Part shown: piece after piece, positions 3,491 to 52,956 of the stretch | Numbering within the stretch: the stretch's first letter is position 1 | Layout: every line of letters starts with the position of its first letter | Assembly: GCA_035510575.1 (NCBI GenBank) | Contig: DATKGV010000012.1 | Span: forward strand, 7,596 to 71,595 | Source of the DNA: Minisyncoccota bacterium | GTDB taxonomy: Bacteria; Patescibacteriota; Minisyncoccia; Phycocordibacterales; UBA9973 | Length of the DNA: 64,000 bases | Direction of reading: 5' to 3' | Translations under genes and position numbers: made by a program | Notes under the pieces: generated by a model | The model's input: only the letters and a program-made list of their open reading frames with translations | Told to the model about the DNA's origin: nothing | Databases searched by the model: none

Positions 3491-3513
3491 ATTTAGTAGT
3501 TGAACTACTAAAT
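3491..3513. repeat. REP palindrome copy 1: ATTTAGTAGTT-G-AACTACTAAAT.
   Basis: Perfect palindrome with 11-bp arms, 22 bp upstream of the RAYT start. Confidence 0.8.
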
Positions 3514-3534: not shown

Positions 3535-4164
3535 ATGAGAAATCATATTTTTGAAATTGGGAAATATTATCATATTTATAATAGAGGAGTAGATAAAAGA
3601 GATATTATTTTAGACGAAGAAGATATTAAAAGGTTTTTGCAAAGTTTAATTGAATTTAATACTATTGATCCAATTCAAAGTATTTTTCAACAACACTTAA
3701 AGAAAAAGTTAAAATTTAGTAGTTCAACTACTAAAAAACAATTGGTTTCTATTGTTGCTTATTGTATAAATCTTAATCATTTCCATTTACTCATTACTCC
3801 TCTAGTAGATAAAGGAATTGAAAAATTTATGCAACGTATTGGTGGTTACACTAGGTTTTTTAATGAAAAATATGATAGATCTGGAGCTTTATTTCAAGGA
3901 AGATTCAAATCAAAAATTATAGAAGATAATAATTACCTTCTTAATTTAAGTGCTTATATAAATTTTAATAATAGAAAAGAAGATGGAGATTTTATTTCAG
4001 AATTTAGTAAATCAAGCCTTGAGGAGTATATTCAAGATGACACAAAAGGTCTTTGTTCCAAAAAAATAATTTTATCTAATTTTAAAAATAAAAAAGATTA
4101 TTTAGAATTTGCAAAATCTTCATGGAAAGAAACTTTAAAAAGAAAAGAAGAAGTAGAATTTTAG
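3535..4164 (+). CDS. REP-associated tyrosine transposase (RAYT, IS200/IS605 TnpA-like Y1 HUH transposase).
   Basis: HUH motif HFHLLI. Conserved GYTRFFNEKYDRSGALFQGRFKS block typical of Y1 transposases. YHIYNRG near the N-terminus. Flanked by REP palindromes. Confidence 0.7.
   Translation: MRNHIFEIGKYYHIYNRGVDKRDIILDEEDIKRFLQSLIEFNTIDPIQSIFQQHLKKKLKFSSSTTKKQLVSIVAYCINLNHFHLLITPLVDKGIEKFMQRIGGYTRFFNEKYDRSGALFQGRFKSKIIEDNNYLLNLSAYINFNNRKEDGDFISEFSKSSLEEYIQDDTKGLCSKKIILSNFKNKKDYLEFAKSSWKETLKRKEEVEF
3715..3735. repeat. REP palindrome copy 2: TTTAGTAGTT-C-AACTACTAAA. It lies inside the RAYT ORF and is in frame.
   Basis: Perfect palindrome. It encodes KFSSSTTKK within the RAYT. Confidence 0.8.
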
Positions 4165-4178
4165 TAGTTGGACTACTA
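4162..4178. repeat. REP palindrome copy 3: TAGTAGT-TGG-ACTACTA.
   Basis: The palindrome overlaps the RAYT stop codon TAG. Confidence 0.75.
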
Positions 4179-4939
4179 TTATTTATATAATTTAAAACAT
4201 TTATTCTTAAGTATAGCTACTTCTTTTATTATATTTAGTTTTGATGCATATTTTACATCCTCATCAAATTCCCAACTACGTAATTCTCTTCCACTAATAG
4301 AATCCCAAATTAATTTTTTAAATTTGGATTTAGATTTTTTATATGCATTTAAACACACTTCTACTTCTGGTGATTTTGTTCCTTTTAAATAACTAATTAT
4401 TAATCCCGCTCCTAAATAATCTTCAATATTGGGACGTAATTCCTTATCCCCCTCCATCTTTCTCCACAAGATATAATAGTAACAGGTATTTTATTAAATT
4501 TTCTTATTCTATTAACTATTTGCGCCACAGGACGAGCATTTATTATGGAACCAATAAAAACAAAATCATTATTTTCAGCTATTTTAGAATAAGTTGAACC
4601 ATTACGAGATGGTAATAAAAATTTTTTACCATTACATGATTTATTAAAAGACAAAGAAGATAAGGATTGTTTATTATAAAGTTTTGCTTCTGACCTTCCT
4701 AATACAACTTCTGCATTAATCTCTTTTGCATATGAATCTATATCTTCTATTTCTGTTTTTGAAAAAGGAAAAATTTCTGATCCATAGTGAATTGCTGTTG
4801 TTACAGTAGTGGAGAAACTCAAAATATCAACAATTATAATAATATCTTTTCTTTTTACTGCTTCTTTTATACCATTTAGACCCCAATCCAATTTACATTC
4901 AAATGGTTCTTGATTAAATACATTATCTGTTTCTTTCAT
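4179..4939 (-). pseudogene. 2-phosphosulfolactate phosphatase family (ComB-like), split by a frameshift at a G5/C5 homopolymer near 4440-4446.
   Basis: Two adjacent-frame ORFs, 4412..4939 and 4179..4469, together resemble ComB: VDILSFSTTV; FLLPSRNGST...ISCGERW; EDYLGAGLIISYL. The frames are joined by a +1 shift at GGGGG. Confidence 0.5.
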
Positions 4940-4951
4940 TATTTTTGAGAA

Positions 4952-4978
4952 AATTTTAGTAGTTGGACTACTAAAATT
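4952..4978. repeat. REP palindrome copy 4: AATTTTAGTAGT-TGG-ACTACTAAAATT.
   Basis: Near-perfect palindrome just upstream of the ComB-like gene start. Confidence 0.75.
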
Positions 4979-8308: not shown

Positions 8309-9790
8309 CTACGCGCGAAGTATTTGTATTGCGGCATTCAAGCGGGAAATCGTTTCATTCTTGCCTAATATTGAAGCTATAATAAACGGATCTGGAGATT
8401 TATCGAGGCCTGACAGAGCATAGCGAATCGGCCAAAGAATATCGCCGCGGCCAATTTCTTCGGCATAAGGCCATAATTTTTCTTTGATATTTTCTTTTGT
8501 AAAATCTTTAATTGGTATGTCCTGTATTATAGATATCGCATTTGCGAGATAATCTGAAAGTATTTGATATTTGTTTTCCTCGGGTATTTTTGATGACTTA
8601 AAGAATAATGAATCCCTGTCAAATGCGGGCTTGCCGAAAAAGTAAGTCAATTCGCCATTTACAGCCATATCCGCTATATCTTTTCCTTTTGAAATTCTTT
8701 CCATGATTATTGGAACAATATTATGTATTACTTCGTTCGTATAGCCCTTAAGTTTCCTTAAACTATTTGGAATAAATTTTTCCGCATATTCTTCTTGCTC
8801 TTCATAAGATAACAATTTTAAATGTTCTTTGTTTATCCAATCCAATTTTTCTTCGTTGAATTTTCCTCCGCTGTGATGAATTTTATCTATGTCAAAAAGC
8901 TTTATAAACTCATCCATATTTATTATTTCAGTTTCATTTCCGGGATTCCATCCTATAAAAGCCAGGAAATTCACCATGGCCTCCGGCAGATATCCTTCTT
9001 TTTCATATTCCAAGACATCTTTAGCCCCGTCGCGCTTGCCTAATTTCTTTTTGCCATCCGGCCCCATTATAGGGGGCAAAGTTGCAAAATGCGGCCTTTC
9101 TATTTCTAAGGCGTCATAAAGCGAAAGAAACTTCGGCGTTGAAGCGATAAACTCATCGGCGCGCATAATATGGGTTACGCCCATTTCAAAATCATCAATA
9201 ATGTGCGCGAAATTATATGTGGGATAACCGTCGCTTTTTATTAATATGAAATCATCAAGCGCTTCAGGTCCCGCTTTCAAATCTCCGCGGACCAGATCAT
9301 TCCACTCATACGGTTTAATATCTGCAACTTTAAAGCGAAGGGGCTGCGTTCCATTCCATATCGGCGGATTTTTCGGCCGGTGATTCCTGTATAAAAATGG
9401 TTTTTTAGATTCTTTCGCTTGCCTGCGAAAAGTTTCCACTTCTTCTTCGGTATAAGGATCGGCATAAGCCATGCCTTTATCTATCAGTATTTTCGCGTAT
9501 TTTAAGTATGATGAGAGCCGTTGCGACTGAATGTATGGAGCATGAGATCCTCCTATGTCAGGTCCCTCGTCCCAATCAATTCCCAGCCATTTCAAAGATT
9601 CAATTATATGGCTTATCGAACCGCCAACTTCCCTTTCTTTGTCGGTATCTTCTATTCTAAGTATAAATTTGCCATTATGCGCTTTGGCATAAGCAAAAGC
9701 GTATAGAGCAGTTCTAACGCCGCCAATGTGCATAAAACCTGTAGGTGAAGGAGCAAAGCGCGTGACAACAGTTTTAGAATTTGTAGACAT
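8309..9790 (-). CDS. gltX: Glutamyl-tRNA synthetase.
   Basis: HIGG motif, VVTRFAPSPTGFMHIGGVRTAL. KLGKRDG (KMSKS-like). Confidence 0.9.
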   Translation of the reverse strand: MSTNSKTVVTRFAPSPTGFMHIGGVRTALYAFAYAKAHNGKFILRIEDTDKEREVGGSISHIIESLKWLGIDWDEGPDIGGSHAPYIQSQRLSSYLKYAKILIDKGMAYADPYTEEEVETFRRQAKESKKPFLYRNHRPKNPPIWNGTQPLRFKVADIKPYEWNDLVRGDLKAGPEALDDFILIKSDGYPTYNFAHIIDDFEMGVTHIMRADEFIASTPKFLSLYDALEIERPHFATLPPIMGPDGKKKLGKRDGAKDVLEYEKEGYLPEAMVNFLAFIGWNPGNETEIINMDEFIKLFDIDKIHHSGGKFNEEKLDWINKEHLKLLSYEEQEEYAEKFIPNSLRKLKGYTNEVIHNIVPIIMERISKGKDIADMAVNGELTYFFGKPAFDRDSLFFKSSKIPEENKYQILSDYLANAISIIQDIPIKDFTKENIKEKLWPYAEEIGRGDILWPIRYALSGLDKSPDPFIIASILGKNETISRLNAAIQILRA

Positions 9791-9792
9791 AA

Positions 9793-10923
9793 TTATGATT
9801 CATGGCTAACTGCTATAGCAAGAGCCTGTTCAGCAATCTTTTTTGCTGCGTCGGGTGATGCGAAAGCAAGAGCTTTATTTTTCATTTGAGTAAGTTTTTC
9901 TTTATCAGCCATTAACCTGTCAATTTCTGCGACAAGAACATGCGGTGTCAGATTGCTTTCTTCTATCACAAGGCAAGCGCCAGTTCTGGCATAACTGAAC
10001 GCATTTTTCTTTTGATGATCGCCGTTTGAATTTGTAATTGGAATAATTATAGATGGTATTCCCCAAGATGCTATTTCAAAAATAAAAGATCCTGCTCTTG
10101 AAATTACCAAAGTGGCAGCGCCTGCAGCCATGCGTATGGCAAGATTATTCAAGTAAGGAATAGGCACGTATCTTATAAGATTTTTTGAATCGCTTTCCAT
10201 TACAAGTTTAGACCGCGCGAGCACGTCATCAATATTTTTGACTCCTGTTTGATGAATTATTTGATAGCGGGAAAGAAGCTCTGGTAAGACCTCAATGATA
10301 TTATTATTTATAACTTCCGCTCCTTGCGAGCCGCCAAGAACAAAAATAACAGGCAATTTGGGATCAAGCTTGAAAAATTCAAATGCGCCCTCTGGACTTC
10401 CATGCAGTATTTCTTTGCGAATCGGTTGGCCGGTTAAAGCCGTTTTATCCTTTGGAAGATGTTCTCCGGCTTCTGGCCACGATACGGCTACGCGCTTGGC
10501 GAATTTAGCAGTCCACGCATTTAGCCGTCCTGGAATTGAATCTGATTCATGAACAATGACAGGTATGCGAAGCAATCTGGCCGCAAAAACCGCCGGGAAA
10601 GCAGAATAGCCCCCTTTTGATATGACAACATCGGGGTAAATAAAAAACATAGTGATTAAGCCGAAGAACATGCCAATAGCCAAAGGGAAAATATCAAAAA
10701 AGTTCCTGATAGAAAAATAAGTGCGCATTTTGCCTGACGGTATCTGGACAAAAGTGATCTTATTCTCAAAAAGCATGCGCTTATCGTATGGAGTATCGGA
10801 CATATAATAAAGCCGCAAATCGATTATCTTCTGCTTTTCTGCAACTTCAAGTAATTCTTCGGCTATGGCAATGAGCGGCAGAAAATGTCCGCCAGTCCCG
10901 CCTCCTGTAAGTAATATCTTCAT
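9793..10923 (-). CDS. murG: MurG, the lipid II-forming GlcNAc transferase.
   Basis: N-terminus LLTGGGTGGHFLPLIAIA. GT28 family. Confidence 0.9.
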   Translation of the reverse strand: MKILLTGGGTGGHFLPLIAIAEELLEVAEKQKIIDLRLYYMSDTPYDKRMLFENKITFVQIPSGKMRTYFSIRNFFDIFPLAIGMFFGLITMFFIYPDVVISKGGYSAFPAVFAARLLRIPVIVHESDSIPGRLNAWTAKFAKRVAVSWPEAGEHLPKDKTALTGQPIRKEILHGSPEGAFEFFKLDPKLPVIFVLGGSQGAEVINNNIIEVLPELLSRYQIIHQTGVKNIDDVLARSKLVMESDSKNLIRYVPIPYLNNLAIRMAAGAATLVISRAGSFIFEIASWGIPSIIIPITNSNGDHQKKNAFSYARTGACLVIEESNLTPHVLVAEIDRLMADKEKLTQMKNKALAFASPDAAKKIAEQALAIAVSHES

Positions 10924-21099: not shown

Positions 21100-21750
21100 A
21101 TGAATCCAATAGAAAAACTTGCAGAGCAATTTAAAGAATTTCCGGGCATTGGCGAACGGCAGGCCAAGCGCTTCGTTTATTTCTTGCTTCATAAGAATCC
21201 GGATTATGTAAATGAACTTGGCGAGGCAGTTTTGTCGATTAAGAATTTAATACACCAATGCCCGTCATGCTTCTTATTTTTCCAAGGAGATAAGGGCAAG
21301 TTATGCGAGGTTTGTGCAAATAGTAATACTGACAGAACTTCCCTTCTGATTGTTGAAAAAGATGCCGATTATGAAAGTATAAAGAAAAGCAAGAATTATA
21401 ATGGCATGTATTTTATACTTGGTGGACTGGTGCCCATTGTCACGAAAGAAACGCCTAATTTTGTGCGCATTAAAGAGCTTTTAAAAACTGTTGAAGAAAG
21501 ATCAAAAAAACCTGCCCGCCCTCACGAAAGTTCGGGAGCAGGCGGGGGCGAACTTAAAGAAATTATTGTAGCCTTATCATTAAACCCGCAAGGCGAGCAT
21601 ACGGACATGTATCTTAGGGAGATATTGAATCCGCTTAAAGAAACATATAAATTTAATATCGTATCTTTGGGGCGAGGTCTTTCTACTGGCACTGAACTGG
21701 AATATTCAGACAGCGAGACGATAAAAAATGCTCTTTTAAATAGAGCATAA
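21100..21750 (+). CDS. recR: Recombination protein RecR, carrying an in-frame GC-rich repeat insertion.
   Basis: HhH EFPGIGERQAKRF. C4 zinc finger CPSCFLF..CEVC. Toprim EIIVALSLNPQGEHT. An atypical KKPARPHESSGAGGG insert is encoded by repeat A. Confidence 0.85.
   Translation: MNPIEKLAEQFKEFPGIGERQAKRFVYFLLHKNPDYVNELGEAVLSIKNLIHQCPSCFLFFQGDKGKLCEVCANSNTDRTSLLIVEKDADYESIKKSKNYNGMYFILGGLVPIVTKETPNFVRIKELLKTVEERSKKPARPHESSGAGGGELKEIIVALSLNPQGEHTDMYLREILNPLKETYKFNIVSLGRGLSTGTELEYSDSETIKNALLNRA
21504..21550. repeat. GC-rich repeat family A, copy 1 (AAAAAAACCTGCCCGCCCTCACGAAAGTTCGGGAGCAGGCGGGGG), in frame in recR.
   Basis: Near-identical reverse-complement copy at 26125-26170. Partial copy at 48156-48170. 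About 70% GC in an AT-rich context. Confidence 0.8.
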
Positions 21751-26067: not shown

Positions 26068-27336
26068 TTAAGACAATCTCTCTTTGAAATCCTTATAGCC
26101 GAATTTCTTTATAATTTTAATCTTACCCCCGCCTGCTCCCGAACTATCGTGAGGGCGGGCAGGTTTTTTTATTATAGCAATTGAAGGAAGATTTATGCCA
26201 TTAAAAGTATTGTTCTTAACCATCGTATAAATGGCCATGTTTAAGAAAATTATTTTTTGCCCGATAGTTGAAGGTTGTGGAAAAGAGTAATCTCCTATAA
26301 CATCTCCAGTCAAACAGCTCGGGCCGACTAAGCGATAAATGTTCACATTTCCTTCTGTAGCTGATTTAGCGCCAAGAATAGTTGGTAAATAAGGCATTTC
26401 CAAGACGTCAGGCATATGAGTAGTGGCCGAGACGTCTATTACAGCGATATTCATATTATTTTTTGTTATATCAACTACGCTGCCTATTAAAATGCCAGCA
26501 TTAAGTGCTATGGCTTCACCCGGCTCTAAATAAACTTGCAAGTGCGGATATTGGGCTTTAAAATCCATGATTATCTTATTAAGAAGCGCAATATCATAGT
26601 CCTTGCGCGTAATATGATGCCCGCCGCCGAAATTAACCCATTTCATCCGAGGCAAAAATTCGCCGAATTTTTCTTCAAATACTTTAAGCGTACGCTCTAG
26701 TGCATCAGCATTAAGCTCGCAAAGATTATGAAAATGAAGGCCGTCTATGCCATCCAAATTATTTGATTCAAAATTCGTTTTGGTCACGCCGAAATGGGAA
26801 TTAGGCCTGCTTGGGTCATACATAGGATTTTCCGTTTCGCTATGTTCCACATTTACCCTGATTCCGCAAGAAATTTTCTTTTTAGAATTTTTAATAACAT
26901 TCTTAAATTTATTCCATTGCGAAAATGAATTAAAAACCATATGATCAGCGTATCTGACATATTCTTTCATATTTTCTTTAGTATATGACGGAGAAAAGAC
27001 GTGGACTTCCCCGCCGAATTTTTTATATCCTAGACGCGCTTCATTTACTGAACTTGCTTCGCTTCCTGTAAGATATTTTTTGATCAATGGGAAAACGGAA
27101 AACATAGAAAAACTTTTCAGCGCCATTATGATTTTACAGCCGGTTTTTTCTTGAACGGAAGAAAGTATTTTAAGATTATGTTCCAATCTTTCCTCGCTCA
27201 CCACATAACAGGGCGTTTCAACATCAGAAAAATCCTGCGCATTCCAGCCCTCTTCATCTACCCAAGGTTCAATAAACATATTTTCTTTTTTATCAGGCAT
27301 TTTAATTTTAATTTTTGATGCTACAAACTCTGCCAT
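26068..27336 (-). CDS. nspC: Carboxynorspermidine/carboxyspermidine decarboxylase (PLP fold III), with a repeat-encoded C-terminal extension.
   Basis: NspC-like alignment throughout: KSFSMF...NFGGGHHI...EPGEAIA...GPSCLTGDV. C-terminal tail IKKPARPHDSSGAGGGKIKIIKK is encoded by repeat A copy 2. Confidence 0.8.
   Translation of the reverse strand: MAEFVASKIKIKMPDKKENMFIEPWVDEEGWNAQDFSDVETPCYVVSEERLEHNLKILSSVQEKTGCKIIMALKSFSMFSVFPLIKKYLTGSEASSVNEARLGYKKFGGEVHVFSPSYTKENMKEYVRYADHMVFNSFSQWNKFKNVIKNSKKKISCGIRVNVEHSETENPMYDPSRPNSHFGVTKTNFESNNLDGIDGLHFHNLCELNADALERTLKVFEEKFGEFLPRMKWVNFGGGHHITRKDYDIALLNKIIMDFKAQYPHLQVYLEPGEAIALNAGILIGSVVDITKNNMNIAVIDVSATTHMPDVLEMPYLPTILGAKSATEGNVNIYRLVGPSCLTGDVIGDYSFPQPSTIGQKIIFLNMAIYTMVKNNTFNGINLPSIAIIKKPARPHDSSGAGGGKIKIIKKFGYKDFKERLS
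26125..26170. repeat. GC-rich repeat family A, copy 2 (reverse complement of copy 1), at the 3' end of nspC.
   Basis: CCCCCGCCTGCTCCCGAACTATCGTGAGGGCGGGCAGGTTTTTTT. One mismatch relative to copy 1. Confidence 0.8.
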
Positions 27337-30357: not shown

Positions 30358-31680
30358 GTGGTTATGGCACGAAAAATTATAATAAATAAATTCGGCGGAG
30401 GAATACTGACTAAAAAATTCATTCCGTTGATTAAGGAGCGTTTGAATGAGCAAATAAAAGCAGGTTATATGCCTGTCATTGTCGTTTCAGCAATGCATGG
30501 AATTACTGATGAAATAATCAAGTTTCTAAATAATAAAAAAATATCAGATCAATCAATTAGAGTGTTTATAAAAAATCTTAGAGATATGCATGATCAAATA
30601 ATGGCAAATATGGGTGTTAAAGTTAATTTGCAAGAAATATTTTCTAAGTTAAGGACTGTCCTTGAGGAGGCCCTCTTAAGGACAGTCCTTGCACCCGCAG
30701 ACGAAGATGAAATAGTTTCTTATGGAGAGAAATTATCGGCAGCTATTTTAACTTCTTATTTAAGCGACCTTAAATTGCCGGTAAAGAAATATTTAGCAGA
30801 AGAAATACCTATAATAACTGATGATAATTTCAAGAATGCAAATATTTTATATAAGGAATCGGAAAAAAATGTTCAAAATAAATTTCTCAATTTAAAAGAA
30901 ATACCAATTATTCCAGGTTTTACCGGCATAACTAGAGACGGGCAAACTACGACGCTTGGCCGAGGAGGCACTGATACGACTGCTTGCTTCATCGGATCTG
31001 CTCTTCAAGCTCGCAATATAATTTTATGGAAAGACGTGGCAGGCGTGTTTTCAGCCGATCCTAAAATAGTTCCCAAGGCGCGCACAATACCGTATATAAG
31101 CTACAGAGAAGCCGAGGAATCCGGCAAAGTCATTCATGAAAAAGCCATTCAATATGTTAAAATGTTTAAAACCCCGATTGAAATAACTTATATCGCAAAT
31201 CCCAAATTAAAGACAAAAATTGGCAAAATTATGGATCAGCAAAAAGGCGCCAAGATAGTCAGCTTCAAAAAAGATCTGGCTCTGATTATTATTACTGATG
31301 AAACTGCAAAAATAACGGAGCTTCTATATGAGACGAGCCGAATTTTTTCCAAATACAAAGTTGATATGATACTTATCAGCAATACCCGTTACAGCTTGCA
31401 AATCGTGGCTGATAATAACAACGGATTGCTCGATAAAGTTATTGGCGAATTAAAAGGCAACTTTTCTAAAATTGAAATTTCCAAGGTTAACATGTTTTTC
31501 TTAGTCGGCAATTTTAACGTCAAAGATGTGAATGATTTCAATGATATTTTAATCAAGCATAAAACCGGCCTCCAAATCAGCGCCTTCCTTTATGAGAATT
31601 GCACTCGGCTTGAAGCAGTGGTTAAAAGTGATAAGGTTGAAGATATTATTAGAGTTCTATATAAGAAATTTATTAAATAA
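30358..31680 (+). CDS. lysC: Aspartate kinase.
   Basis: Amino-acid kinase N-terminus IINKFGGGIL. C-terminal ACT-like region. Contains an in-frame nested palindrome encoding LRTVLEEALLRTVLA. Confidence 0.85.
   Translation: MVMARKIIINKFGGGILTKKFIPLIKERLNEQIKAGYMPVIVVSAMHGITDEIIKFLNNKKISDQSIRVFIKNLRDMHDQIMANMGVKVNLQEIFSKLRTVLEEALLRTVLAPADEDEIVSYGEKLSAAILTSYLSDLKLPVKKYLAEEIPIITDDNFKNANILYKESEKNVQNKFLNLKEIPIIPGFTGITRDGQTTTLGRGGTDTTACFIGSALQARNIILWKDVAGVFSADPKIVPKARTIPYISYREAEESGKVIHEKAIQYVKMFKTPIEITYIANPKLKTKIGKIMDQQKGAKIVSFKKDLALIIITDETAKITELLYETSRIFSKYKVDMILISNTRYSLQIVADNNNGLLDKVIGELKGNFSKIEISKVNMFFLVGNFNVKDVNDFNDILIKHKTGLQISAFLYENCTRLEAVVKSDKVEDIIRVLYKKFIK
30650..30692. repeat. Nested palindromic insert in lysC (TAAGGACTGTCCTT-GAGGAGGCCCTCTT-AAGGACAGTCCTT).
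   Basis: Two self-complementary 13-mers, AAGGAC(T/A)GTCCTT, flanking a GC-rich core. Encodes the duplicated peptide LRTVL. Confidence 0.65.
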
Positions 31681-35409: not shown

Positions 35410-37302
35410 TTATTTCTTCTCTGGATTTTCGTTTACTTCAGCGTCTTTGATTTCTTCGCCTTGAGCTTCTGGAGTTGCTGGTGCGCCTTCTTGCGGAGCG
35501 TTCTTGCTCATAGCTTCGCCAATTTTTGAAACTTCAGTTGTAAGAGCTTCGAGTGCAGTTTTAATTGCTTGCAAGTCAGTGCCGTCTTTGGCTTTCTTCA
35601 CATCGGCAATTTTGCCTTCTACGCTTGTCTTAAGTTCAGTCGGAATTTTATCGCCGTATTCTTTAAGCGATTTTTCAGATGAAAAGATTATCATTTCCGC
35701 CGTATTTTTCTCATCAACCAATTCCTTCTTCTTGGCATCCTCATCAGCATGAGCTTCGGCGTCATCTTTCATTTTCTTTATATCGGCATCAGTAAGACCA
35801 GATGAGGCCTCAATGCGGATTGATTGCTCCTTACCCGAAGCTTTATCTTTAGCTTTAACATTTAAGATTCCGTTGGCATCAACATCAAAAGTCACTTCTA
35901 TCTGCGGCATGCCTCGAGGGGCCGGCGGAATGCCATCTAGAATAAACCTGCCGAGTGACTTATTATCGGATGCCATCGGGCGCTCGCCTTGCGTAATATG
36001 AATTTCCACGGATGTCTGATTATCAGCGGCAGTTGAGAACACTTGGCTCTTTGAGTTTGGAATTGTCGTATTGCGTTCAATAAGCTTGGTAGCCACTCCG
36101 CCAAGCGTTTCAATGCCGAGCGATAGCGGTATGACGTCAAGAAGAAGGACATCTTTAACATCGCCTTGAAGGACTCCAGCTTGAACAGCCGCGCCGAGCG
36201 CCACAACTTCATCCGGATTAATGGAACGGTTCGGCTCTTTGCCGTTGAACAATTTCTTGACTTCTTCAACAATTTTAGGCATGCGCGTCTGTCCGCCAAC
36301 CATGATAATTTCATTAATTTCATTCATCTTGAACGGCGAGACCTCCATTGCGCGCTTTGAAATCTCTATCGATCTCGTAATATATTCTTCAGCTAGCGAC
36401 TCAAGCGTGGCGCGAGTCATTTTCATAAGAAGATGCTTCGGGCCCGATGCATCGGATGTGATAAACGGAATATTAATTTCTGTTTCCGGCGTGGTTGAAA
36501 GTTCAATCTTGGCTTTTTCAGCGGCTTCATCAAGGCGCTGAAGCGCCAGCGGATCTTTAGTGACATCTATGCCTGATTCTTTTTTATATTCAGCCGCAAT
36601 CCAATTGATTATTTTCTGATCTATATCACGGCCTCCCATGTGCGAGTCGCCGTCGGTGGATTTCACTTCTATAACATCGTCTGAGACCTCAAGCACGGAA
36701 ATATCAAATGTTCCGCCTCCGAAATCGTACACAACTATCTTTTCATTTTTCTTGGTATTAAATCCATAAGCAAGAGCGGCCGCTGTCGGCTCATTTATAA
36801 TTCTCTTTACATCGAGACCGGCAATTGCTCCGGCATCTTTGGTGGCTTTTCTTTGCGCGTCATTGAAATATGCTGGCACGGTAATAATAGCTTCAGTGAT
36901 TTTCTCGCCAAGCTTGGCTTCAACATCGGTCTTAATCTTTGAGAGAATCATGGCTGAAATCTCTTCCGGACGATACCATTTATTGCCGATATTCACTTCA
37001 ACTCCGCCGTCAGTTCCTTTCTGAATTTTGAACGGCGCCGTTTTTTGCGATTTCTGGATTTCCGGATCGTCAAACATGTGGCCCATGAATCGCTTGATGC
37101 CGTAAATAGTATTCTGCGGATTTGTCACCGCCTGGCGCTTGGCAAGCAAACCGACAAGGCGATCGCCATTCTTGGCAATTGCGACAATCGACGGAGTTGT
37201 TCGTCCGCCTTCAATATTTTCTATAATCTTCGGCTGCCCTCCTTCTATAATCGCAACCGCGCTATTTGTTGTACCCAAGTCAATACCAATTATTTTTGAC
37301 AT
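35410..37302 (-). CDS. dnaK: Chaperone DnaK (Hsp70).
   Basis: [21 protein letters not shown]. Start taken at MSKIIGID. An in-frame ATG 15 nt upstream is also possible. Confidence 0.92.
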
Positions 37303-37335
37303 ATATTTGTTTAGCATAGCAAATTATTTATTTCT

Positions 37336-37369
37336 GAATGGTCTGGTGAGAAAGTCCGAGGACCTGAAG
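37336..37369. repeat. Repeat family B, copy 1 (TGAATGGTCTGGTGAGAAAGTCCGAGGACCTGAA), in the dnaK 5' leader.
   Basis: A second copy at 50198-50231 is identical at 32 of 34 positions. Confidence 0.75.
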
Positions 37370-37423
37370 AAATATATAATTTGCGAAGCGTTTTTAATTA
37401 ATAATTTTTAATTTATAGAAGCA

Positions 37424-37451
37424 TTATATACTACTCTTTTATTTTTGACAA
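37424..37451 (-). promoter_or_regulatory. Sigma70-type promoter for dnaK: -35 TTGTCA, 16-bp spacer, -10 TATAAT.
   Basis: Minus-strand reading gives cTTGTCAaaaataaaagagtagtaTATAATg, about 100 nt upstream of the dnaK ATG. Confidence 0.6.
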
Positions 37452-37563: not shown

Positions 37564-38109
37564 ATGTCAAAATTCACTACAGGGTCAAGTAAAAGCGACT
37601 ATTCCAAGAAAATATTGAAGATTTTGGCTGAAAAACCGGCAGTTTCTGTTATGGAACTTGTAGATAGGGCTTTAGGCGCTCAGATAGCGCCTAAAGCCCT
37701 ATCTACGTATGCCCTTACACGCTCGCTAAAAGGCCTTACAGAGGCAGGATTTGTTGAGAGCGTATCATCGGGTCAAAACGAATACGCGCGTCTTACAAAC
37801 GAAGGCAAGCGCAAGGCCTATAGCATAAAACTGGAATCCGGACTTGTTTCAACGAAATGGGACGGCTATTGGCGAATGATTATGCTTGATCTGCCAGAAG
37901 AACGCAAAAGCGAACGCGAGGCGCTTCGCTATCTGCTCAAAAAGGCCGGATTTGTCTGTGTTAAAAATTCTGTCTGGGTGTCTATGTACCCATATGAGAA
38001 TCTTTTCATAAATATTAAAAAAGATCTCGGTCTTACAACCGAGATGATGATACTCGTCACAGATAAAATTGACGAAGAAACAGAGAAAGAATTAATTAAG
38101 ATGTTTTAA
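37564..38109 (+). CDS. Small winged-helix regulator with a PaaX_C-like C-terminal domain.
   Basis: N-terminal wHTH ILKILAEKPAVSVMELV. C-terminal WDGYWRMIMLDLPEERKSEREALRYLLKKAGF...NSVWVS resembles the PaaX C-terminal domain. Located between grpE and dnaK. Confidence 0.45.
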   Translation: MSKFTTGSSKSDYSKKILKILAEKPAVSVMELVDRALGAQIAPKALSTYALTRSLKGLTEAGFVESVSSGQNEYARLTNEGKRKAYSIKLESGLVSTKWDGYWRMIMLDLPEERKSEREALRYLLKKAGFVCVKNSVWVSMYPYENLFINIKKDLGLTTEMMILVTDKIDEETEKELIKMF

Positions 38110-41529: not shown

Positions 41530-41571
41530 CCCCATGTCGGACTTGTGGTTAGCCATAAGTCCGACATGGGG
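41530..41571 (-). promoter_or_regulatory. Intercistronic hairpin between rpsK and rpsD, with a perfect 15-bp stem.
   Basis: CCCCATGTCGGACTT / AAGTCCGACATGGGG with a 12-nt loop. It starts 6 nt after the rpsK stop and ends about 10 nt before the rpsD start. Confidence 0.6.
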
Positions 41572-48194: not shown

Positions 48195-49982
48195 TCAATA
48201 AACCTCTTGCTGGTAACATTTCTCGCAGTATATAATCTCTGGTCGGTCTGGTGAATATGATGTTTCAAACTCTATGTCACAGTTATTATTTCCGTGAAAA
48301 TGACTTGTCTTGTCACACATACACTTCCTATGCCAGAGTTTCATAGGATTACGCATTTTTAATCTTTCTCTATGACGACAAAAGAAACATAGATGTGGCA
48401 ATGGCACTTTTAATTTTTTATACAAATTTAATTCATCTTCTATTACTTTAAAGGCCTTCCGGCAATAAATATTATTTTCATTTACATTTTCGCATTCTAT
48501 AATTTCTCTAATTATTTCATCAGAAACGTCATTTAGTTTATCCGGCAAATCTTTTGCTTTTATAGTTGCTTTATATTCATTTACTTGCCTCTCTCGCCAT
48601 TTATAACCTTCTTTTAATATCTTCTCTTTTGTTTTAGGAAAATAATCTTGAGCAACTGTTTCATTGTAGGCAAATGGTGAAAGTTCTACTGGAAAAAATT
48701 CTCCATATTTATAAATAATCTTATTTTTATCAACATAAGGAATATTCATCATTTGCTGTTTTATTTTTGAAACGAGTTTTTCATATTCATCTTTTGAATA
48801 TTGTTTATTTAAAATACAATATTTTTTATTTCTTAAGCCAAGACAGCCAAATAGGTTAGAACAGCCATAACAATTAAAGCAATATTCTATTTCATTTGAA
48901 CTATATACAACACTAGTAAAAAGATTGCGGTAATTTCCTATTCCAGTGTCAAAAATTTCATAAGTCAATTCTGCTAATCCTATTCCAGGACCAGAATCAT
49001 AACCATCTTTTACATCTTTTTCTAGCCAATGAGAATATTTACAATCTTCTATATTGCCCTTTGCATCAAAACAAAATTTGCAATTTTTTGTTCCCTCAAG
49101 ATTATCGCCGATAGAATTAACTGTTTTTATATGGATAGCAAAGCGATGTAATGACTTTAAATACAATTCTTTGAAATTTTTTTTGAGCTCTAAAATTATT
49201 TTATAATCTGTTAAATCCAATTCAGCCAGACGATGATTATACTCTTCTTTAGACAGTTGCTTATTCCACATACAATAGGACTTGCTTCGAAGATTACTGC
49301 AACCAAAACAATTTACACAGCCATGACAATCATATAAAAAATAAGAGTCGACACAATTTTTGCAGTTTAAAGAATATAAAAGATGGTAACAATCTGAACA
49401 AATAACATCATCATAACAAAGTTCTGCATCATTAACTACATAAAGATCGGAAGAATCTTTAATTCTTGAAATCCGATTCGAATAAAAAGTTTGTTCAATT
49501 TGCCAAGAACCAGATGACATGTAACTGTTTCTACTTTCCTCAGCAATATTACAATAATCACTATTCGTAGCATTGCTATTTGAAAGAATTTGGAGGGGAA
49601 ATTGATTCATTAGATTTTTCCATTGCTTAAAAAATGGTTCAGAAAAATCATAATCACGCCCATAAAACATTGGGTCCCATTTATCTCCCCACCAATATTT
49701 TATATCATAAACTATGAGATTTTCATCTGGAGGATAAAGAGAAATTAAAGTTTCATTATGATCGGGAGCATTGCATTTCCTCTTAAAAAGAGACATCTCA
49801 TTTCGCCAGCATAATCTTCTTATCGTTCTGCATTCCGGACAAAAAGTTGGTGGAGGAACTTTAATTTTCTCATAAAAAGAAAAGTCGTCCGGCTCAATAA
49901 TAAAGTTTTGCTTACAGTTTTGGCATATTCTAGTTTCTGAATTCATATTCAGAATTATGCCACAATACCTCCGCCTAGGCAA
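48195..49982 (-). CDS. Cys-rich multi-zinc-ribbon protein (paralog B).
   Basis: 595 aa. Same architecture and identical C-terminal motif as 27363..29030. Overlaps the mnmA 3' end by 28 nt. Confidence 0.7.
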   Translation of the reverse strand: MPRRRYCGIILNMNSETRICQNCKQNFIIEPDDFSFYEKIKVPPPTFCPECRTIRRLCWRNEMSLFKRKCNAPDHNETLISLYPPDENLIVYDIKYWWGDKWDPMFYGRDYDFSEPFFKQWKNLMNQFPLQILSNSNATNSDYCNIAEESRNSYMSSGSWQIEQTFYSNRISRIKDSSDLYVVNDAELCYDDVICSDCYHLLYSLNCKNCVDSYFLYDCHGCVNCFGCSNLRSKSYCMWNKQLSKEEYNHRLAELDLTDYKIILELKKNFKELYLKSLHRFAIHIKTVNSIGDNLEGTKNCKFCFDAKGNIEDCKYSHWLEKDVKDGYDSGPGIGLAELTYEIFDTGIGNYRNLFTSVVYSSNEIEYCFNCYGCSNLFGCLGLRNKKYCILNKQYSKDEYEKLVSKIKQQMMNIPYVDKNKIIYKYGEFFPVELSPFAYNETVAQDYFPKTKEKILKEGYKWRERQVNEYKATIKAKDLPDKLNDVSDEIIREIIECENVNENNIYCRKAFKVIEDELNLYKKLKVPLPHLCFFCRHRERLKMRNPMKLWHRKCMCDKTSHFHGNNNCDIEFETSYSPDRPEIIYCEKCYQQEVY

Positions 49983-51139
49983 ATATCTTTGTCATATACT
50001 ACAATTGATTGACCAGAATCAACTAAAACATCATTATCAAAGGTTACTCTAGCTTCTTTATCCGAAATAATTTTTATATGACAGTTTAGTAATTCTCCAT
50101 GATAGCGAATTTGCGCAGTATATATTTTATTTTTGTCCGGAAGCTCATTTATCCAATTTGTATTATTAATAATTAATGAGCTAAAAAATTCTTTTTTTGA
50201 ATGGTCTGGTGAGTTAGTCCGAGGACCTGAAAAAAATGAATTATTTGGCGAATTTAAAACTGTAATTGTATTTTCTTTTAAATTTTTTGAAACAACATAA
50301 AGAGGCCTATTTTCGGAAGATTTTTCAGTAATCGTAAATCCATGCCTTTCGCCTAAAGTGAAAAATATTGCTCCATCATGAGTGCCTATAACTTCCTCAT
50401 TTTCATTCAGAACATTTCCCTTTTTTGATTCTATATAATGCTTTAGAAAATCTTTCATATCAAGTGGCCCTAAAAAGCAAACACCTTGACTATCTTTTTT
50501 AACTGCCGTAGGAAGCTTATATTTCTTTGCAAGTTTACGAACTTCTGTTTTCTTTAAATGTCCAATTGGGAAAAGTATATGTTCTAAATCTTTCTGAGTA
50601 AGAGTCCACAAAAAATAACTTTGATCTTTTGATGAATCAGGACTTTGTTTTAAAAAGTATTTTTCCTCCCCTGCTAAGGGGAGGTGGTCTTTAGACCGGA
50701 GGGGTGCACCCCCTCGTCTTTCAGACACTCCCCCTTCGCAGGGGGAGAAAAAAACTTTAGCATAATGTCCAGTTGCAATAAAATCTGCTCCATGACTTTT
50801 TGCAAAATTCCAAAATACACCAAACTTCACTTCGCGATTGCACATGACATCTGGATTGGGAGTATGGCCCTTTTTATATTCTTCTATCATATAGAGAGCC
50901 ACATTCTTCTTATATTCTTCCTCCGCATTACACTCCAAAAACGGAATGTTTAAATGGGCGCAAACTTTCATGGCGTCGCGCCGTTCATTTCGCCAAGAGC
51001 ATTCTATGAAGTCCGGCGTCCATGTGCGTATAAAAACTCCGACGACATTATAGCCTTGGTCTTTTAAAAGCGCGGCGCTGACTGAAGAATCTACGCCTCC
51101 GGAAACGCCGACAAACACTGTTTTATTATTTTTATTCAT
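49955..51139 (-). CDS. mnmA: tRNA-specific 2-thiouridylase MnmA carrying two in-frame repeat-derived inserts.
   Basis: PP-loop VGVSGGVDSSV. GHYA...DQSYFL. The insert SPCEGGVSERRGGAPLRSKDHLPLAGEE is encoded by a GC hairpin triplet. The insert FFSGPRTNSPDHSKKEFF is encoded by repeat B. Confidence 0.85.
   Translation of the reverse strand: MNKNNKTVFVGVSGGVDSSVSAALLKDQGYNVVGVFIRTWTPDFIECSWRNERRDAMKVCAHLNIPFLECNAEEEYKKNVALYMIEEYKKGHTPNPDVMCNREVKFGVFWNFAKSHGADFIATGHYAKVFFSPCEGGVSERRGGAPLRSKDHLPLAGEEKYFLKQSPDSSKDQSYFLWTLTQKDLEHILFPIGHLKKTEVRKLAKKYKLPTAVKKDSQGVCFLGPLDMKDFLKHYIESKKGNVLNENEEVIGTHDGAIFFTLGERHGFTITEKSSENRPLYVVSKNLKENTITVLNSPNNSFFSGPRTNSPDHSKKEFFSSLIINNTNWINELPDKNKIYTAQIRYHGELLNCHIKIISDKEARVTFDNDVLVDSGQSIVVYDKDICLGGGIVA
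50198..50231. repeat. Repeat family B, copy 2, in frame in mnmA.
   Basis: TGAATGGTCTGGTGAGTTAGTCCGAGGACCTGAA, compared with copy 1 at 37336-37369. Confidence 0.75.
50664..50747. repeat. Array of three GC-rich hairpins in frame in mnmA.
   Basis: CCTCCCC-TGCTAA-GGGGAGG. GAGGGG-TGCA-CCCCCTC. CTCCCCC-TTCGCA-GGGGGAG. Confidence 0.75.
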
Positions 51140-52047: not shown

Positions 52048-52956
52048 TTATTTGAGATATTTGGCAATATTAATCTTATGCTCTTGGAATGTTTTTGCAA
52101 AATGTATCATGCCATTCTTATCATACAGATAATACAGATATGGAGAGTCAACAGGATAAAGAGATGCGCTTATGGACATTAGCCCGGGATTTGCAATAGG
52201 TTCCGATGGAAGTCCCAATATCTTATAAGTGATAGGCGCGGCATCAACTTGAAGGGGCATGCCAAGCGAAAGGCGCTTCCAGAGAATTCCGGAAATGATT
52301 TTCATATCGCTTTCGCTGGACGCTTCATGCTCAAGTATGGAAGCCATTGTTATAATATCATTCAAGCTGTGCTTGGAATTCAAAACATCTTGGCGCAATT
52401 TTGCCGTTTGCTTGTCGAAATTATCGGATAAAACCGAGATTATTTCATCCGTGGTGGAAAGAGAAAAGAAAAAATAAGTATCCGGGAATAAATATCCCTG
52501 TTTTGCGGCGGCATTTTTATCAAATTCTTCTTTATTAAAACCAGCAATATTTTTTGACAGCAAATCGGATATCTCGCCGTTGGTCAAACCTTCCCTGATT
52601 GTAATCTTAATCGGATTAACATTATGCATTCCGTGAGCAAGATCCCATGCTACTTTAAAAAGCGGCGAATTTTTATTGAAATAATAATCGCCCCACGGTA
52701 TCTGCCTATCGCTTTTGAATAATTCAGCCAGCAATTGGAGCAAGGTTTTTGAACGAATAATATTCTTGTCTTTTAAATCATTGGATATCGCATGAAGCGA
52801 TTCTTTGGGAGAAATATGAATTGTAGTCGGATTTGAGCCGATAGGCGCTGATATTAAAGAATAATAGCCGATAATAAAGACAATCATGGCAATTAAAACA
52901 TACACACGGCTTCGGCGTGTGTATGTTTTAATTGGTTCTTTATCGGATATATCCAT
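52048..52956 (-). CDS. mltG: Endolytic murein transglycosylase MltG (YceG-like).
   Basis: N-terminal TM helix. YceG motifs GYLFPDTYFF and ASILEHEAS. Confidence 0.8.
   Translation of the reverse strand: MDISDKEPIKTYTRRSRVYVLIAMIVFIIGYYSLISAPIGSNPTTIHISPKESLHAISNDLKDKNIIRSKTLLQLLAELFKSDRQIPWGDYYFNKNSPLFKVAWDLAHGMHNVNPIKITIREGLTNGEISDLLSKNIAGFNKEEFDKNAAAKQGYLFPDTYFFFSLSTTDEIISVLSDNFDKQTAKLRQDVLNSKHSLNDIITMASILEHEASSESDMKIISGILWKRLSLGMPLQVDAAPITYKILGLPSEPIANPGLMSISASLYPVDSPYLYYLYDKNGMIHFAKTFQEHKINIAKYLK

Follow-up and report, generated by a model that had tools for sequence, protein, structure and literature searches.

A dispersed hairpin element in the dnaK leader and, in frame, in mnmA of Patescibacteria and its likeness to mobile palindromic repeats

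Two copies of a 34-mer, one located upstream of dnaK and the other within mnmA in a 64-kb stretch of a Patescibacteria genome (hereinafter, the window), are probably the apices of a non-autonomous palindromic mobile element of the RPE/REPIN-like kind, tolerated in frame in surface loops of proteins. As judged from sequence comparison, the element is dispersed through the genomes of Patescibacteria, both Paceibacteria and Saccharibacteria; the DNA examined comprised the 64-kb window of the source genome together with about 200 kb from relatives. Genomes of Patescibacteria (candidate phyla radiation) are about 1 Mb in size and are regarded as streamlined. A hairpin family occupying operon spacers and essential genes, such as mnmA and pheS, would represent persistent selfish or semi-domesticated DNA in this group, and its insertions may explain part of the odd length variation in conserved Patescibacteria proteins.

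The 34-mer and the hairpin capped by it

A pattern search of the 64-kb window for the repeated 34-mer TGAATGGTCTGGTGAG(AA/TT)AGTCCGAGGACCTGAA gave exactly two matches, 37335-37368 and 50198-50231, both on the + strand and differing solely in the central AA/TT. No matches were obtained in 100 shuffles, and in a repeat search of the window the repeated stretch grew to 42 nt, with 90% identity. The initial annotation had reported the 34-mer at these two places, with the first copy starting at 37336, which is one base off. It had also read one and the same repeat as untranslated leader of dnaK and as in-frame coding sequence of mnmA, and this reading is supported by the open reading frames and the predicted promoter. 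The leader of dnaK, given there as roughly 100 nt, is predicted to be about 110 nt long from the consensus promoter match. In addition to what was annotated, the 34-mer proved to be a mere tip of a hairpin element of about 70 nt, both window copies proved to be antisense to host genes, and mnmA was found to hold a second, unrelated hairpin insertion of about 100 nt. The features of the two loci are the following:

35410-37302, - strand: dnaK, from the list of open reading frames, 100% identical to P0121 (NCBI DnaK, 630 aa)
37317-37386, + strand: hairpin copy 1, located within the predicted 5' leader of dnaK in antisense orientation to dnaK (cmsearch)
37423-37451, - strand: promoter-like site TTGTCA-17-TATAAT, near-consensus sigma-70-like, 11 of 12 matches (prediction)
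49955-51139, - strand: mnmA (tRNA 2-thiouridine synthase), phmmer against PDB MnmA E 8e-73, hosts copy 2
50180-50249, + strand: hairpin copy 2, located within mnmA in antisense orientation to this gene (cmsearch)

Both mnmA and dnaK are located on the - strand, and the written strand of the 34-mer is therefore antisense to both. Copy 1 (cmsearch 76.9 bits, E 1e-15) folds with -27 kcal/mol, z -5.4; its apex is TGGTCTGG-TGAGAAAGT-CCGAGGACC, and its stem is formed by GCAAATTATTTATTTCTGAA / TGAAGAAATATATAATTTGC. Copy 2 (82.3 bits) folds with -21.3 kcal/mol, z -3.5. The AT-rich stems of the two copies are unlike each other, each being self-complementary. The covariance model detected two copies in the 64 kb, including when its filters were off.

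The source of the window is a metagenome-assembled genome, and an artefact of assembly or a chimera was accordingly considered. Such an origin is unlikely, because the same sequences are present in independent assemblies: the dnaK leader of the JGI metagenome contig L005 is identical to that of the window, and the MnmA protein P0001 was recorded from NCBI, JGI and Logan assemblies. The frame is also kept in all coding copies, and the probability of an artefact is negligible.

The element is about 70-110 nt long and is represented by an AT-rich stem of about 22 bp, a bulged T and two inverted, hairpin-forming conserved motifs, TGGTCTGG and CCGAGGACC, separated by a variable apex of 9 to about 45 nt. 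Its outermost parts are an outer helix of 2-6 bp, followed by a purine-rich internal loop with GAA opposite GAA; most copies contain a tandem G.A/A.G mismatch beside a covarying A-T/G-C pair. Near the tip, GGTCT pairs with GGACC, with an invariant T.G wobble, and GG/CC close the variable apex. The features other than Watson-Crick pairs are located on the TGGTCTGG strand, and it is this strand that folds better in 18 of the 24 copies. Direct repeats GAA...GAA and YGAR...YGAR flank the modules and are equally readable as G.A internal loops. The centre of the element is conserved and the stem ends vary, while the apex has no consistent structure across copies: it holds a further small hairpin in L002, L121 and L123, and a nested GC-rich hairpin, related to the repeat 'family A' of the window, in the methyltransferase copy of L007.

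Every copy folds as a long hairpin, z -3.5 to -10, the energies being those of RNA parameters, though the structure may be DNA. When 10 copies are aligned without gaps, pairing extends to 91.3% of cells, and both partners change in 22 of the 31 pairs; none of 500 shuffles reached the observed pairing values, and sliding the partner column gave 30-62% paired. Values for the 21 cmsearch rows (20 copies) are 90.2% of cells and 23 of 29 pairs, although this alignment leans somewhat towards structure, because it was fitted to the covariance model. Strong covariation within coding sequence calls for caution in RNA-motif discovery and in the use of gene callers and aligners on Patescibacteria genomes.

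Dispersal of the element through Patescibacteria

The covariance model, built from 10 copies, found 20 copies at E<1e-5 in 260 kb of Paceibacteria and Saccharibacteria loci, and three weaker ones besides; additional copies are present in many related genomes. In the control, 729 kb of viral contigs, the model gave 0 hits. The apex motif pair was matched by 109 stretches of viral sequence, which is about chance level, and none of them was a hairpin by the covariance model.

Exact-core scans, with a pattern that fixed GAGNNAGTCC, gave 2 loci among genome contigs and 3 among metagenome contigs. In the first loci obtained by the exact pattern, L001-L004, the tip always caps a 20-25-bp stem of differing sequence:

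L001, Saccharibacteria MAG: a copy inside pheS and another in a 557-aa ORF
L002, Paceibacteria MAG: a copy in the atpE-atpF spacer
L003, metagenome contig: a copy in the nrdA-nrdB spacer
L004: a copy just upstream of the 5S rRNA gene

An invariant 26-nt core common to phyla was rejected as ascertainment by the search pattern. The invariance of the 26-mer is partly an artefact, because the pattern fixed GAGNNAGTCC, and mnmA orthologs vary between TGGTCTGG and CCGAGGACC. On the copies compared, the truly conserved part is the motif pair TGGTCTGG / CCGAGGACC.

Analysis with Rfam 15 gave no relevant match, either at gathering thresholds on the whole window or at E<=10 at both sites, and returned one tRNA and noise. 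When peptides from all six frames were queried against 5.8 billion proteins, four word-sharing candidates appeared, none of which scored, the peptides being too short for the method. No description of the element was found in the literature on palindromic or MITE-like repeats in CPR/Patescibacteria.

In-frame copies in mnmA, pheS and a methyltransferase gene

The MnmA of the window is identical to P0001, the NCBI-named MnmA of a Candidatus Paceibacterota MAG. The 34-mer is translated there as FFSGPRTNSPDHSKKEFF, and the in-frame translation of copy 2 is (S)PNNSFFSGPRTNSPDHSKKEFFS. Compared with solved MnmA structures, the segment is inserted sequence, seen as a 14-residue gap at the element, and the same comparison revealed a second, larger extra segment in the window protein, residues ~131-164. 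Confidence in the AlphaFold model of the window MnmA is lowest at the two inserts, with pLDDT 52-55 at residues 301-320; the mean pLDDT of the model is a moderate 69. The segment is also missing in many close orthologs. MnmA orthologs vary in length between 353 and 465 aa. In 34 orthologs from Paceibacteria (65-75% identity), both positions proved to be hot spots of insertion, each with several unrelated insert types and empty forms; SGPR..SPDHS is present at the position of the window insert in five of them. The DNA of six orthologs (L006-L011) contains a homologous 70-83-nt hairpin at the same mnmA site, with the layout stem, T, GGTCTGG, loop (9-22 nt), CCGAGGACC and stem.

The second segment of the window MnmA corresponds to 50654-50758, a GC-rich in-frame hairpin of about 100 nt, unrelated to the 34-mer element, with about -58 to -61 kcal/mol, z about -6 and pLDDT below 50. 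In orthologs, this site holds one of at least four different types of insert or is empty. At the N-terminus of the orthologs P0053 and P0100, the segment PKQR(L/V).ATGQAGG is located between duplicated TVF(V/I)GVS / VFVGVS and resembles an insertion with a long flank duplication, or a mis-called start.

Judged by protein length, the inserted unit is the whole hairpin, because PheS of L001 has 27 residues where the solved structure from Staphylococcus has 2, and the SAM methyltransferase of L011 is 26 aa longer than the products of the empty genes of the window, L006 and L010. These lengths bear on the formation of palindromes in situ by template-switch mutagenesis (quasi-palindrome correction), in which the hairpins would not be mobile and the conserved apex would seed the process. 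The stems, near-perfect despite sequence divergence, agree with such a process, as does a perfect palindrome with a 21-bp stem at 37660-37706, in the PaaX-like gene between grpE and dnaK; this gene is as long as its orthologs, a hint that the palindrome was formed in situ by template switching. In-situ palindromization of the element is nevertheless quite improbable, because it explains neither the same apex and similar stems in unrelated genes of different Patescibacteria classes nor the presence of the whole hairpin as extra sequence in PheS and the methyltransferase.

Coding copies were found at the following sites:

mnmA site 2
mnmA site 1 (L011)
pheS and a 557-aa ORF (both L001)
methyltransferase gene (L007, L011)

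All coding copies, at no fewer than, that is at least, five distinct sites, are antisense to the TGGTCTGG strand. One frame is used throughout at the PDH end of the apex, and most copies read SGPR..PDHS. Most copies have three further open frames, and the one that is used exceeds these in hydrophilicity, with a mean hydropathy of -1.21. The sites of coding copies coincide with gaps relative to the solved MnmA and PheS structures. Conservation of the frame suggests that the inserts are translated.

If the element is mobile, as is preferred here, its insertions would survive where harm is small. In leaders and intercistronic spacers it would merely be transcribed as a hairpin, while survival in genes would need a frame-keeping length, an orientation antisense to the TGGTCTGG strand and the hydrophilic ..SGPR..PDHSKK.. 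in a surface loop. Because insertions would persist where they are little harmful, the element would be UTR sequence at dnaK and an extra loop of roughly 14-24 residues in MnmA, and neither role would require a host function.

Non-coding copies, mobility and relation to known repeats

The start of dnaK at 37302 agrees with the NCBI model P0121, which starts with MSKIIG. Copy 1 is placed inside the predicted 5' UTR because of this start and the consensus-match promoter (37451->37423); the hairpin ends about 15 nt ahead of the dnaK ATG. L121, L123 and L124 have a copy at the same position upstream of dnaK; that of L122 is degenerate. The dnaK-leader copy thus occupies the same place in at least four genomes, the DnaK proteins of which are only about 88-90% identical to that of the window, and changes in its stem are compensated across the window, L124, L121 and L123. 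The remaining non-coding sites are the atpB-atpE spacer, the mnmA leader (L010) and the spacer between the decarboxylase and deoxyhypusine-synthase (DHS) genes (L121, L123). Relative to transcription, non-coding copies were found in both orientations. A fixed orientation relative to replication was rejected, the TGGTCTGG strand belonging to the C-rich strand of the window but to the G-rich strand of L002.

The position of the dnaK-leader copy, shared by at least four genomes, and its compensated stem could instead mean selection for a host function. The main alternative to a mobile element is a host-beneficial structured element under purifying selection, for example an RNase III or other processing/stability hairpin in operon transcripts or a dnaK-leader regulator, with coding copies as by-products. 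Compensatory stem changes at one orthologous non-coding site, the location of non-coding copies in intercistronic spacers of operons (atp, nrd, rRNA), the conservation of the strand-specific invariant U.G, tandem G.A and GAA/GAA loops, and the better folding of the TGGTCTGG strand are all consistent with a host benefit. However, some spacers carry the element in sense and others in antisense orientation, and therefore no single RNA is made; the apex structure is inconsistent among copies, and no Rfam family matched at E<=10. Coding copies in essential genes, together with presence and absence at orthologous sites, suit selfish spread better, and the explanation by host benefit is unlikely.

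Unlikely, too, is that the hairpin, as ssDNA or RNA, is a strand- and structure-specific element maintained across Patescibacteria by long-lasting purifying selection, a REPIN-like replicator in coding sequence, the dnaK-leader copy of which was co-opted for regulation. The bulged T, the invariant T.G wobble and the G.A loops would then be recognized by an enzyme or a host protein, and the element would differ from any described REPIN in having protein-coding sequence as its habitat.

In five genomes, the dnaK-leader element adjoins a divergent gene of a PaaX-like winged-helix regulator. An 88-aa ORF is located between the PaaX-like gene and the hairpin in L121, L123 and L124 (~9600-9866) and is absent from the window and L122. 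A DNA operator of the heat-shock operon, substituting for CIRCE/HrcA and bound by the divergent PaaX-like protein, would agree with this neighbourhood of dnaK and the regulator gene and with the apex GGTC...GACC, an imperfect inverted repeat. It is very unlikely, since the same element is present at mnmA, pheS, atp, nrd and rRNA genes and a CIRCE-like site is absent from the window: a search there for the operator TTAGCACTC-N9-GAGTGCTAA with up to 3 mismatches gave 0 matches.

Occupancy of orthologous sites varies. The methyltransferase site is filled in L007 and L011 and empty in the window, L006 and L010; the decarboxylase-DHS spacer is filled in L121 and L123, and only a 42-nt spacer is present in L124; mnmA site 2 is patchily occupied among orthologs. 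The neighbour-joining tree of MnmA is star-like and does not separate one insertion at site 2 from several; copies of the B type (that of the 34-mer element) are found in a four-member group and, apart from it, in the protein of the window. Four-fold-type sites of the mnmA genes are saturated (0.29-0.46 identity; 0.36 for the window and L010). The mnmA stems of the window and L010 are about 85% identical, and the motif pair is identical in 5 of the 6 fetched mnmA orthologs. The motif pair and stems are alike despite saturated synonymous-type sites, which therefore points to constraint at the nucleotide level or to recent arrival.

As selfish DNA, the mobile element proposed here would spread, or would once have spread, via a folded single-stranded intermediate. 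Its mobilization would occur in trans, and HUH/Y1 enzymes (RAYT/IS200-type) are the obvious candidate class. Analysis of the element modules and of filled versus empty methyltransferase genes, which are highly diverged, revealed no transposition event, target-site duplication or parent element, and gene calls covering about 150 kb of related loci included no transposase family. The window itself contains one gene of the candidate class:

3535-4164, + strand: Y1_Tnp (IS200/RAYT-like HUH) gene, 209 aa, Pfam 36 bits (above cut-off), NCBIfam REP_Tyr_transpos 27 bits (below cut-off)

The palindromes flanking this gene, TTTAGTAGTTGAACTACTAAA, are REP-like and of the GTAG type, and are located at 3491-3511, 3713-3733, 4159-4180 and 4954-4975; one of them lies within the Y1_Tnp ORF, and two are nested in larger AT-rich hairpins. 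The 34-mer hairpin element (family B) was not found flanking this gene in the 64-kb window. As a source of the mobilizer, the gene may be regarded as a representative of a candidate class only, being flanked by a different palindrome.

Several groups of small repeats are comparable to the element. MITEs are characterized by conserved terminal inverted repeats, target-site duplications and an origin from IS elements. Like the MITE-type repeats Correia/NEMIS, ERIC, BOX and RUP, the element is small, non-coding, dispersed, transcribed as a hairpin in operons and sometimes intragenic, and it shares with them presence and absence at orthologous sites. Neither a duplication nor a parent IS sharing its ends was seen for the element, and it departs from MITEs because its centre is conserved and its ends vary. 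GC clusters of yeast mitochondria are GC-richer hairpin modules in an AT-rich genome, found in frame in var1, and the byp elements, which are related to them, are skipped by translating ribosomes. These are organellar and unrelated in sequence, and the conserved frame of the Patescibacteria element argues for translation instead.

REPINs are hairpin-forming doublets moved by RAYTs, and REPs are extragenic by definition (PMC3116915). With REPINs the element shares two inverted motifs with a spacer, a long hairpin in ssDNA or mRNA, a non-autonomous nature and long persistence at partly conserved positions, as well as a RAYT-like Y1 gene in the same window. It differs from REPs and REPINs in being also intragenic (at least five coding sites), and the RAYT-like gene of the window is flanked by the GTAG-type palindrome rather than by family B; no consistent GTAG/CGTC tag was found on family B copies.

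Rickettsia RPEs are palindromic repeats located in intergenic regions and in frame in unrelated housekeeping genes (Ogata et al. 2000, summarised in PMC10969869), and their insertions have one conserved frame and a conserved peptide compatible with the protein fold (PMC10969869). Likewise, the element is represented by short dispersed palindromes in a small AT-rich genome, both intergenic and in frame in genes, with one frame and one peptide. RPEs are about 150 bp long, versus 70-110 nt here, the likeness being drawn from descriptions of RPEs; the Patescibacteria element is further distinguished by a motif pair near the tip, an apex of variable length and strongly covarying stems. It is not an RPE in the strict sense, because its hosts are Paceibacteria and Saccharibacteria MAGs and not Rickettsia. 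On this comparison, Rickettsia RPEs and REPINs read as the closest parallels, the element being a member of neither. It may serve as a natural second system, beside Rickettsia RPEs, for the entry of palindromes into coding sequence and their absorption by proteins.

Other palindromes are present in the window. The GC-rich 55-nt repeat 'family A' is found at 21504-21558 (recR, + strand) and 26116-26170 (decarboxylase-like gene, - strand); the copies are 91% complementary, and both are read in frame, with one shared frame that gives KKPARPH(E/D)SSGAGGG. Long near-perfect palindromes with stems of 13-19 bp are located at 52890-52934, 41530-41571 and 30651-30690, within or at the ends of ORFs. Positions 1-2000 of the window have a GC content of 47%, versus about 37% for the remainder, and contain an ORF with an AAA_24 domain (460-1641); this region is possibly foreign DNA.
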